Shown here: in pieces, positions 14,234-16,216 of the stretch
How positions within the stretch are numbered: position 1 is the first letter of the stretch
Layout: the number at the start of each line of letters is the position of its first letter
Source: Candidatus Poribacteria bacterium
GTDB lineage: Bacteria > Poribacteria > WGA-4E > GCA-2687025
NCBI GenBank assembly: GCA_963665845.2
Contig: OY762492.1
Coordinates: forward strand, 1,248,001 to 1,312,000
Reading direction: 5' to 3'
Length of the DNA stretch: 64,000 bases
Notes under the pieces: generated by a model
What the model was told of the DNA's origin: nothing
The model's input: the letters and a program-made list of their open reading frames with translations, nothing else
Databases searched by the model: none
Position numbers and translations under genes: made by a program

Positions 14234-14309
14234 TGGCGCGCCCGGCAGGAGTCGAACCTGCGGCCTAGTGATTAGAAGTCACTTGCTCTATCCGCTGAGC
14301 TACGGGCGC
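14234..14309 (-). tRNA. tRNA-Arg (anticodon UCU)
   Basis: 76 nt: GCGCCCG acceptor stem, TAGCTCAG D arm, AGTGA-CT-TCT-AA-TCACT anticodon arm, GGTTCGACTCC T arm, encoded CCA. Confidence 0.97.
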
Positions 14310-14380: not shown

Positions 14381-14548
14381 CTGACCTGACGCCTAAAGTT
14401 GGGACATTTGAACCGACCATCGCTCTATTCATGGGTTAAAGGCGTCATCAACCGGGTCGTCATTCCCGCGTAAGCGGGAATCCAGAGTCTACCCCGAAAC
14501 CGTCCGCGTTCACAACCAGAATTGTCCCAACTCTAAGGGTGTGGTCAG
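14381..14548 (-). mobile_element. full-length ~168-bp MITE with ~26-bp imperfect TIRs and an internal dRS3-like hairpin
   Basis: Ends ctgacctgacgcctaaagttgggaca / tgtcccaactctaagggtgtggtcag; collinear (inverted) with 36037..36203. Confidence 0.8.
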
Positions 14549-14556
14549 TTGGAAAA

Positions 14557-14640
14557 CTGACCTTACGTCTATAGTCGGGACATGGCGGCGGGCGAACGCG
14601 GACGGTTTCTGCGGCGCCTCTAGATTCCCGCTTACGCGGG
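14557..14640 (+). mobile_element. left part of a MITE copy interrupted by IS110 (continues at 16188..16200)
   Basis: The hairpin gattcccgcttacgcggg stops at 14640; its normal continuation aatgacgacctgg appears at 16188. Confidence 0.85.
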
Positions 14641-14759
14641 AGTATCTGTGTTCAAAGTCAACCATATCTCGTTCTCCGTAGTCCAGAAAGTCGCCGCGGC
14701 GGATCTTTTTCGGCAGTACCGAAGGAGCCGCCGCAGCTGTCTCTCGGAAAGGGTTTTCA

Positions 14760-15958
14760 TCAGCCTTGCGTCCTGTCGCTTGACTGCGGATCGGAAGACG
14801 CCGCCGCCGGCGCTTCTCCAGGCGCCGGCAGCGCCTCCCCGTCAGCCTCATCAGAAGACGCCGCCGCAGACGTTTCGGTCTGACCCGCGACCGACGCATC
14901 GGAAGACCCCGACTCTTCCGATGGCGCCTCAGCCTCAGTGTCATCCTGCTCATCAGAAGACGCCGACTCTTCCGACGAAGCCAACGAATGCAGCTCATCC
15001 AAAGGAACCCAAGGCGTCTCCCGCTTCAGAATCGCGTTCGCAAGAACCGCCAGCTTCCGCATGACCGCCACAAGAGCCGCCTTCCCAGGCTTGCCGTTCT
15101 CCTTCAGACGCTCGTAAAACACCTTCATGTCCGGGTTGAAACGAATCGCCGACATCGCCGACATATACAGAAGCGCCCGAATATCGCTCCGACCGCCCCA
15201 AATGCGGCGCCGACCTGTCGACTTGCCGCTCTCGTGCGCCCAAGGAGCCAAACCAAGCAGGGAACAGATCTGACGGCCGCTCCGCTCGCCCAACTCCGGC
15301 ACAAAAGAACCAGATATGCGGAAATGAGATCGCCGAAGCCCGGAATGCTCTTCAACAGACGGAACCTCTTGTAAAGATCAGGCTTTTCCTTGATCAACGC
15401 CAGAGCTTCCCGCTCCGCCGCCTTGCGCTCCTCTTTCAGAGTGTCGCGCAGCTTTTTGGTCGCAGCCTCCGTCGGCTCGCCTTCCAGTAGATGCAGCCGA
15501 TTGGTCAACTGGGTGGTCATTTTCACCAGCTGCCTGTCCATCGTCATCCAGCAGCGAGCGTCTTTCACGATCGGATCGATCGGCGTTGTCGATTCCAGAT
15601 CGCGGCTCAGCCCATACAGCGCGAGCATCTTGGCGTTCAGCGCGTCGGTCTTGGCGCGGACGCTGTAGGAGCGGATGAAGTTATGGGCAAAGTTTGGATG
15701 GCAGCGGCGGTAAGGGATCTCTGCTTCGGCGAGCAGCGACGCCAGTTTCCGCTCGTATCCGCCGGTCGGTTCAAAGACGACCATGTTGATGTTGGGGTGG
15801 GTCGTCAGGAGGCGTTTGATGAACCGCTTGATGGGGCTCGCGGCGTTTTTAATGGTGGAGGTTTCCCCGCCGTTGATGGAGATTTCAAGCGTGTCTTTGG
15901 ACGCGTCGATTCCGGCGACGATTTTGTTGCTGTTTGTCTTGGTCTGAGTTAGACTCAT
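14760..15958 (-). pseudogene. IS110 transposase, frameshifted near 15303, fourth catalytic Asp replaced by Asn
   Basis: GIDASK, VFEPTG, AKTDALNA and SIPGFG in one frame; PELG, GLAP..ESG, IWGGR..IR..LYM and A.VAVMRKL in another. Confidence 0.88.
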
Positions 15959-15989
15959 GCTCGTTCTCCTTTCTGGAGAAAAAGGACGA

Positions 15990-16175
15990 GAAGGACCGGC
16001 CTCCCTACTTGTATTCTGCACGAATGCACAACATCTGTCCGGAGCCGCCGGTTCTTCTTGTCTTCTTTGCGCGGCTCTCGATACTCCCGCACGGCGCCGC
16101 TGCGAAGCAACGCGCCCAAGACGGTCTGGAGTCTCACCGCGCTGCCCCTTAAGTATGCGCTTACTCTAGGGGCAA
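15990..16175 (-). ncRNA. putative IS110 bridge RNA
   Basis: A 5' hairpin (gcccct..aggggc) is followed by two stem-internal-loop domains containing segments that match the target (GCGGGAG) and the donor (ACAGATGTT, ATACAAG). Ends are approximate. Confidence 0.8.
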
Positions 16176-16216
16176 TGTCATCATACAAATGACGACCTGG
16201 CTTGCGACGCTCGCTG

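Follow-up and report, generated by a model that had tools for sequence, protein, structure and literature searches.

The nearest described relatives of the element analysed here are IS621 of Escherichia coli and ISCro4/IS622 (PMC11208160, PMC11208158, PMC13626964, 10.1101/2025.05.14.653916; PDB 8wt6, 9t56). In these members of the IS110 family, a recombinase with a RuvC-type DEDD domain and a Tnp domain with a catalytic serine is paired with a bridge RNA from the left end, made of a 5' stem-loop and two guide loops. The core dinucleotide of IS621 is CT at both ends and is called invariant. The experimental work altered the core jointly in both partners, donor and target (PMC11208160), designs for bridge editing require matching cores (10.1101/2025.05.14.653916), and a review lists the core as a constraint (PMC13604230). 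We examined an IS621-like element in a window of 64 kb from the 3.98-Mb genome of a Candidatus Poribacteria bacterium (contig OY762492.1; genome G000 below). The element lies on the minus strand of the window and joins a TT target core to a CT donor core. Labels of the form L005 denote insertion sites tabulated across genomes, and those of the form G061 the genomes compared.

Protein, RNA and guides all place the element among the IS621-like members of IS110, as the first-pass annotation had proposed from the letters alone. With IS621 and ISCro4 it shares the two-domain protein, the left-end RNA with its 5' stem-loop and two guide loops, a donor of the form ACAG-x-CT-TGTAT, a predicted promoter at the circle junction, handshake dinucleotides and a repetitive extragenic palindrome (REP) as target; the sequence of IS621 itself has the same order of parts (PMC11208160). 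It departs from IS621 in its unlike cores, in an A at position 7 of both partners, in a His at the position of Asn84, in an acidic tail of about 80 residues and in its target, a CGTC-1 repeat. That IS110 elements settle in REP-like repeats, as the annotation stated, is already in print (PMC1525189, PMC11208160). Like ISPpu9, ISPpu10, ISPa11 and ISRm19, all copies sit at one position of a host palindrome (PMC1525189), and an IS110-type integrase of the Nf1/MDA phage likewise targets Neisseria dRS3, a CGTC-1 repeat (PMC7058167). Nf1 uses a conserved CT in the middle of a dRS3 subtype, whereas the element described here cuts behind ATT at the stem's foot, a place that has no CT. The seekRNA view of ISEc21 (PMC11187229) is also close: duplication is not characteristic of the family, insertion occurs without it, and one copy of the apparent repeat lies inside the element, as CT does here. 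The target of ISEc21 is different, and in the available part of that account a difference between cores does not serve to mark strands.

The insertion point is CGTCATT^CCCGC of a CGTC-1 (dRS3-type) repeat. In a profile of 824 copies the tag is CGTC, the stem has 8 bp and begins with AT, the loop has 4 nt and the tail is CCA/CTA, in agreement with the definition of CGTC-1, Neisseria dRS3 included, in the text of PMC3733652. On the minus strand the left junction reads GTCGTCA-TT, TGTAT (16196-16183) and the right junction ACAGATA-CT, CCCGC (14649-14636). These junctions had been called correctly. The span of 14557..16200 had not: the true ends are 14641 and 16187, and 14557-14640 consists of the right half of the host repeat and one terminal repeat of a miniature inverted-repeat transposable element (MITE). 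Among the 824 oriented empty repeats the core is TT in 822, TG in one and TC in one, so that the empty site obtained earlier by removing the element holds. CT occurs in none of the 824, which means that no simple excision scar with a CT core is present among them.

This genome contains seven near-full copies about 90% identical (the window copy included), one truncated copy, two distant copies and one relic. Left junctions read xxCGTCA-TT in 10 of 10 copies, full right junctions read ACAGATA-CT-CC(C/T)G in 9 of 9, and all ten copies lie at the same base of the repeat. In five further genomes (G061-G065), where copies were enumerated by protein, 41 of 44 are TT/CT, two are CT/CT and one has its left end replaced by other DNA; the right core is CT in all 44. 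The two CT/CT exceptions are at natively CT sites. One (L168) lies in a repeat whose partner arm has also changed, and therefore the left core follows the target; the other (L267) is at an off-target site. Over the six genomes, 50 complete insertions are TT on the left and CT on the right and none is the reverse, which a coin-flip between strands would produce with P = 4e-16 (n = 51, counting the truncated copy and taking insertions as independent). In G001, 8 of 8 left cores are TT and nine right cores are CT, the element ends falling at contig ends or breaks with no assembled gene there.

A pattern scan allowing CT or TT as the right core returned 117 loci from 14 of the 64 parts of the genome collection, in hosts labelled Dehalococcoidia, Thermodesulfobacteriota, Binatia, Chloroflexota, Ca. 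Leptofilum and Poribacteria. Thirteen were CT loci: ten with IS110 upstream, two at contig ends and one with 300 bases and no match. None of the 104 TT loci, 63 of which had at least 800 bases upstream, showed an IS110 match or the donor flank ACAGATA, and the reciprocal ACAGATA-TT junction was found at 0 of the 117. Among 60 relatives searched by protein, only matches of 26-38% were obtained, with other targets, and a plasmid search gave distant IS110 only. Of 87 loci of the wider clade, scoring was possible for 43, the others lacking an end or a match for donor or guide. Of the 43, 36 are CT/CT, six TT/CT and one AT/CT; CT is the right core in each of them, and the base of the target is what the left guide reads. 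Unlike cores are thus present in 7 of 43 scored relatives, including two at non-repeat targets (L237, TT/CT; L165, AT/CT); L011, outside the scored set, seems by eye to be GT/CT. We conclude that the same core at both ends, as in IS621, is not found here, that the TT/CT difference is real and guide-encoded, and that the unlike core is recurrent and not unique to the window element.

The predicted bridge RNA was then compared with that of IS621. The left end of the window element, which is 229 nt long and lies upstream of the gene (the right non-coding end is about 119 nt), folds well (z -6.2). An alignment-based consensus of 16 relatives from other genomes has the IS621 layout with the guides in loops; this subset was used because the default alignment fold missed the outer stem of the target loop through misalignment. 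Of the 49 pairs in the consensus, 28 vary in both partners, a number reached by none of 500 shuffles and by no slid control (8-13); this count leans towards support since the structure came from the same alignment with guides held open. A covariance model built only from these 16 relatives found 15989-16176(-) as the sole match in the 64-kb window (36.2 bits, E = 1.3e-8), while an Rfam scan of the window returned tRNA only and no bridge-RNA family. The IS621-type layout announced by the first-pass annotation is therefore borne out by consensus, covarying stems and model.

The donor guides, the right target guide and the TTGACT-17-TATGAT motif all lie where that annotation had placed them; ACCGTCTTG at 16125-16117 (minus), which it overlooked, is the left target guide. 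The U at position 8 of this guide, which reads the TT core, is present in every REP-targeting lineage; its register is ambiguous, an alternative starting one base earlier with a bulged DNA base. Guides change with the DNA: L005 has AUGUAAG for a right donor half TACAT, L155 has both donor halves (ACAGTTG and AGTAT) and both guides altered, L182 has GCCGGAG for a right target half CCGGC, and L193 and L237 match other targets at 7 of 7 positions. Coordinates are collected in Table 1. In copies of G065, L155 included, the 290-nt left end appears to carry two target-loop-like segments, each guiding to the same repeat, followed by one donor loop. In L182, L183, L187 and L216, the sequence of the left target guide occurs once more, in the inner stem-loop of the target loop.

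Table 1. Features of the element and its surroundings in the 64-kb window (from left to right end of the element, then neighbouring DNA)
Feature	Position	Strand	Basis or remark
Element proper	14641-16187	minus	between host-repeat halves
Left target half (LT), positions 1-7, GTCGTCA	16190..16196	minus	host CGTC-1 repeat; same motif at 10/10 left junctions
Left core TT, target-derived	16188..16189	minus	TT in 822/824 empty repeats
Right donor half (RD) TGTAT, with which the element begins	16183..16187	minus	IS621 starts likewise after its CT (PMC11208160)
-10-like hexamer TATGAT, predicted circle-junction promoter	16180..16185	minus	TATGAT, TATGTT or CATGAT in 19/19 tabulated copies
Predicted bridge RNA with 5' stem-loop and loops for target and donor binding	15989..16176	minus	fold z -6.2; covariance model; covarying stems
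Left target guide ACCGUCUUG	16117..16125	minus	U at position 8 reads TT core; relatives carry xxCGUCAU(U/A/G)
Right target guide GCGGGAG	16084..16090	minus	ends AG, reading CT; G.T wobble on TT target
Target-loop handshake UA (16083-16082) and UC (16081-16080)	16080..16083	minus	UA conserved; UC in 8 closest copies only
Left donor guide ACAGAUGUU	16030..16038	minus	ACAGAUAC(A/C) in most sister copies
Right donor guide AUACAAG	16008..16014	minus	AUGUAAG with RD TACAT in L005
Donor-loop handshake UA	16006..16007	minus	UG in distant copies and relatives
IS110 recombinase gene, broken	14760..15958	minus	PF01548 and PF02371 in two frames
-35-like hexamer TTGACT, predicted circle-junction promoter	14656..14661	minus	sequence motif
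Left donor half (LD) ACAGATA	14643..14649	minus	junction reading
Right core CT, donor-derived, last bases of the element	14641..14642	minus	9/9 here, 44/44 in five other genomes
Right target half and remaining repeat hairpin with tail, host DNA	14621..14640	minus	repeat profile
27-bp terminal repeat of 168-bp MITE, right arm only	14557..14583	minus	MITE census
Complete 168-bp MITE with empty target repeat	14381..14548	plus	among 60 complete copies

The best solved relatives of the recombinase are ISCro4 (E = 1.7e-28) and IS621 (E = 6.3e-27), with about one third of aligned residues identical by eye. In intact copies the N-terminal DEDD RuvC domain (PF01548) has D18/E63/D105/D108, the C-terminal Tnp domain (PF02371) has S244 aligned to the catalytic S241 of IS621, and a Y265-M266-M269 wedge also aligns. 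The window gene has a frameshift near 15302, which puts the Tnp domain out of frame, and an Asn in place of the fourth catalytic Asp (codon 15637-15635, position 108). Every contig covering this position in four public runs has the Asp codon at 15637, and the Asn lesion may therefore be private to the window copy or an assembly error. The window copy is probably inactive in cis and would rely on sister copies. Four of these in the same genome have intact genes for 397-400 aa, intact copies lying for example at C1:3697544-3698737 and C1:526107-527306, so that the repaired recombinase once suggested for an assay is not needed.

At the position of Asn84, the residue with which IS621 reads the core, there is a His (His87). 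In a clade of 19 rows (support 96), made of 13 unlike-core and six like-core elements, 18 have His at this place; the tree is a quick version with long branches and one mis-extracted row (L245), and the unlike-core trait forces at least three changes on it. The His may relax the preference for C. After the conserved C-terminus follows an acidic, low-complexity tail rich in Ser, Ala and Pro, of 77-94 residues (window 14760-15000; P0001, P0007-P0017), whose composition would be compatible with disorder. It is restricted to this sub-clade, and other relatives stop within a few residues of the conserved C-terminus.

How could unlike cores be joined? In IS621 the top strand is cut between positions 9 and 10 and the bottom strand four bases away, repair being suggested (PMC11208158), and an unligated bottom strand is expected (PMC13626964). 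Integration of CazIS110-1 goes more than 1,300-fold more through the top strand (10.1101/2025.10.25.684509), and for IS621 single-stranded copy-out has been described together with recombination at half-matches (10.64898/2026.08.31.748434). Any of these published models has the top strand decide positions 6-9, as the junctions here show; top-strand transfer as in CazIS110-1 predicts exactly TT on the left and CT on the right. Those two studies report bench results, whereas the evidence here is genomic; the word 'core' is absent from the former, and the latter, in the part available, holds the CT core constant.

We consider it probable that the bridge RNA of this IS621-like element matches the CGTC-1 repeat on both sides of one base, that the CT donor is likely joined to the TT target by top-strand cuts just 3' of the shared T, and that the bottom strand is likely rebuilt from the top. 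By analogy with IS621 and CazIS110-1, the circle would form a -35/-10 promoter driving both RNA and recombinase. Its sigma-70-like motif, TTG(ACT/ACA/TTT)-17-(T/C)ATG(A/T)T, is conserved across the predicted junction, with the 17-nt spacing constant in 19 of 19 tabulated copies. The left target guide, with its U at position 8, would base-pair with the target on its bottom strand. The right guides would keep their AG because that G contacts the protein, as G80 and G165 do in the literature, and a G.T wobble would allow the TT target to be accepted. Each top strand would carry positions up to 9, so that the TT of the target stays at the left junction, and CT stays both at the right junction and in the copied-out circle; the bottom strand would be rebuilt afterwards. 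As a top strand cut 3' of the core carries positions 6-9, the unlike core needs no new mechanism. The junction letters likely record one strand joined first and dictating the product, and the TT/CT pattern is a natural strand marker rather than new chemistry. As to the novelty claimed for it, no report of it was found in work on unlike natural cores, heteroduplex, footprints, CGTC repeats with IS110 or Poribacteria with IS110, in literature outside subscription papers, ISfinder and preprint supplements; on the other hand, known top-strand-first transfer is sufficient, and the trait is shared by the seven relatives counted above.

Direction would be set by position 6 of the handshake and not by the core. 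After exchange, the Watson-Crick pair at position 8 is gained in the target loop and lost in the donor loop, a net of zero over the 19 tabulated copies. At positions 6-9, pairs go from 5 to 7 in most relatives, the gain coming from position 6, and also from 5 to 6 or from 4 to 6. A handshake had been proposed for the product junction, with TATC as an extension of the target guide. A gain of one or two pairs is seen in 13 of 19 copies, to which the core adds nothing, and the UA part is conserved; the UC part is limited to the eight closest copies, and six copies of the window type gain no pair.

Several observations weigh against this reading. The six window-type copies have six pairs at positions 6-9 before exchange and six after, with no forward bias visible; the UC extension of the eight closest copies might offset their donor-loop UA. 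Position 7 is A in both partners, each of which pairs with the first handshake base, an arrangement that strongly lowered the activity of IS621 and that design rules avoid (10.1101/2025.05.14.653916). The earlier proposal would have failed had the guides been buried in stems. In the isolated window RNA the right target guide is largely buried (mean unpaired probability 0.16) and opening all four guides costs 12.8 kcal/mol, whereas the alignment fold leaves the guides in loops. The site of the window copy matches its own left target guide at just five of nine positions. The His is neither needed (L155 and L165 carry Asn) nor sufficient (five CT/CT relatives have it). No circle junction was found among the listed joints in contigs of four public runs, contigs being prone to drop rare forms. 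The activity of the element is a prediction from sequence, and the junction sequences fit top-strand-only transfer and full exchange followed by repair equally well.

The left guide of L007 fits the window site (16190-16196), and L005 sits where its own guide fits five of seven; guiding in trans or mosaic copies are possible explanations for such mismatches. Contigs of an RNA run from another sample (X9) lie over parts of the left end, in a small share, which cannot show transcription and gives no evidence of expression.

Other routes to the same junctions were considered. If both strands were exchanged by cuts one base apart around the shared T, TT/CT would result directly, with no heteroduplex, and the same 50:0 pattern would follow without host repair. 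We hold this to be improbable: the bottom cut of IS621 is four bases from its top cut, the guides here retain the lengths and layout of IS621, and the donor bases from positions 6/7-9 that three empty repeats hold (see below) are not transferable by a one-base overlap. Somewhat less remote, though still unlikely, is the idea that the core difference evolved as a third handshake driving insertion forward, the G.T of the target becoming G-C with the donor after exchange. The target-loop pair improves in all 19 tabulated copies, another source of asymmetry would help where position 7 provides none, and the left donor guide has U at position 8 in 5 of 7 unlike-core relatives against 1 of 36 like-core ones, a hint of adaptation from counts of related elements that are not independent. 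The donor loop loses the same pair, however, which leaves a net of zero, the whole gain (5 to 7, 5 to 6, 4 to 6) arises elsewhere, mainly at position 6, and contact with the protein also explains the G. A handshake of four nucleotides and a net handshake role of the core are not supported, given the restricted UC and the zero net change.

The targets could also have been CT at insertion, or recombination with some of the many hundred empty repeats could later have turned the left junctions into TT. The genome does have more than 800 repeats, and these do recombine, as the breaks of half-MITEs within the hairpin indicate. Against this stand the lack of any CT among the 824 empty repeats, a left target guide that carries U at position 8 in all REP-targeting lineages, the natively CT site that kept CT (L168), and the same behaviour at the non-repeat targets L237 and L165. 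This explanation is already largely refuted and we give it hardly any credit. Top-strand joining with later rebuilding of the bottom strand thus remains our preferred account.

Three of the empty repeats (G000 C1:630784(+), 758333(+) and 2683231(-)) read xxxG-TACT-CC rather than xxxGTCATT-CC. GTACT corresponds to target positions 1-4 plus donor positions 6-9, one base short of the prediction based on IS621. It is a possible bottom-strand footprint if the target-side cut lay one base further out than in IS621, and the left guide of the near copies is readable with position 7 bulged. That these variants are instead ordinary mutations, or gene conversions between a right junction and an empty repeat, has in our view only slightly less than an even chance. 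There are three of them in a single genome, against 0 of 878 exact repeats in six other element-bearing genomes (the chance of zero at the same rate is about 0.04), and the length is one base short. Yet each needs two changes, both donor-ward, with both one-step intermediates absent among empty repeats (0 GTCACT, 0 GTATT); the sites have different flanks, two of them differing from empty repeats by 7 and 9 mismatches in 80 but from one another by 18, and they look independent. No such footprint was found in G061-G065, G001, G002, G003, G067 or the viral contigs, and no exact match in G068-G072, five other repeat-bearing genomes with IS110 content unchecked and repeats uncounted. Six repeats of G071 (L348-L354) have GAACT before the stem and no IS110 match in their flanks.

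Junk junctions were also observed. The truncated copy is joined at an internal CT, and a contig of run X1 supports the join. Mini-remnants consist of the target TT, 9-10 bases of the left end of the element, CT and the right half of the repeat (G000 C1:3524971 and 1919864; L310, L338 and L347 in G001), and one in G067 (L309) has TT, 17 bases of unknown origin, CT and the repeat right half. A fragment of an HNH gene (G000 C1:3738841-3739075) has its own ACAGATA-CT fused to a repeat right half, with a similar case at L336. A chromosomal pseudo-donor may have recombined there; the reciprocal junction of this fusion was searched for and not found. G000 C1:3739225 and many paralogues form a large family of genes for DNA methyltransferases and methyltransferase-HNH proteins, with dozens of tblastn matches, several of them split. 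Truncated copy, remnants and fusion resemble half-match products, which the half-match recombination of the IS621 copy-out model would explain (10.64898/2026.08.31.748434); deletion at microhomology is an alternative.

A broader reading, which we put forward tentatively and as less probable than its contrary, is that the clade represents a bridge system sharing only the core T, in which His in place of Asn84 and the U of the left guide open position 8 and free the cores of the two partners from having to match. The genome would then record both outcomes, with top-strand letters at the junctions and rare bottom-strand GTACT footprints whose target cut is shifted by one base through a bulge at position 7, and the mini-remnants and HNH fusion would reflect half-match recombination in a wild genome.

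The target had also been described as a hairpin borne by a MITE. Sixty complete copies of this MITE, mostly 168 bp, have 27-bp ends and a central CGTC-1 hairpin, and 106 half copies are mostly broken inside the hairpin. The terminal inverted repeats, the lack of coding capacity and an autonomous partner with the same ends (1.27 kb, DDE transposase PF01609, G000 C1:561321-562588) identify it as a MITE; direct repeats of 5-9 bp flank 34 of the 60 complete copies, with none in 26 by the rule applied. A MITE end lies near 7 of 10 filled sites compared to 166 of 824 empty repeats (20%; binomial P = 0.0009), and the guide-matching flank ACCGTCA is present at 5 of 10 filled sites compared to 94 of 824 empty ones (P = 0.003). 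The two enrichments are confounded with each other and the copies are not independent. The association is an enrichment and no rule, and the hairpin is mostly not MITE-borne; at the window site itself the left MITE arm is absent. A tRNA gene (14237-14309) lies immediately downstream of the MITE pair. In G062, two copies (L157) are placed tail to tail in both arms of one repeat dimer.

In other respects the element is typical of a family that has been studied well, and the family, the targeting of REPs and a sufficient mechanism are known. What it offers is a natural strand marker with a ratio of 50 to 0, a residue that lends itself to testing, and possible footprints of a disputed second step. 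The unlike base is a built-in strand marker for the dispute between exchange through a Holliday junction and copy-out transposition through the top strand only. The contact of Asn84 is named as a lever to engineer core preference in the supplement of PMC11208158, and the His clade is therefore directly testable. Pipelines that delimit elements by a repeated core would miss or misplace such elements. A family that pairs TT with CT, some of its members with His at the Asn84 position, is ready-made material on whether the rule of identical cores can be dropped.

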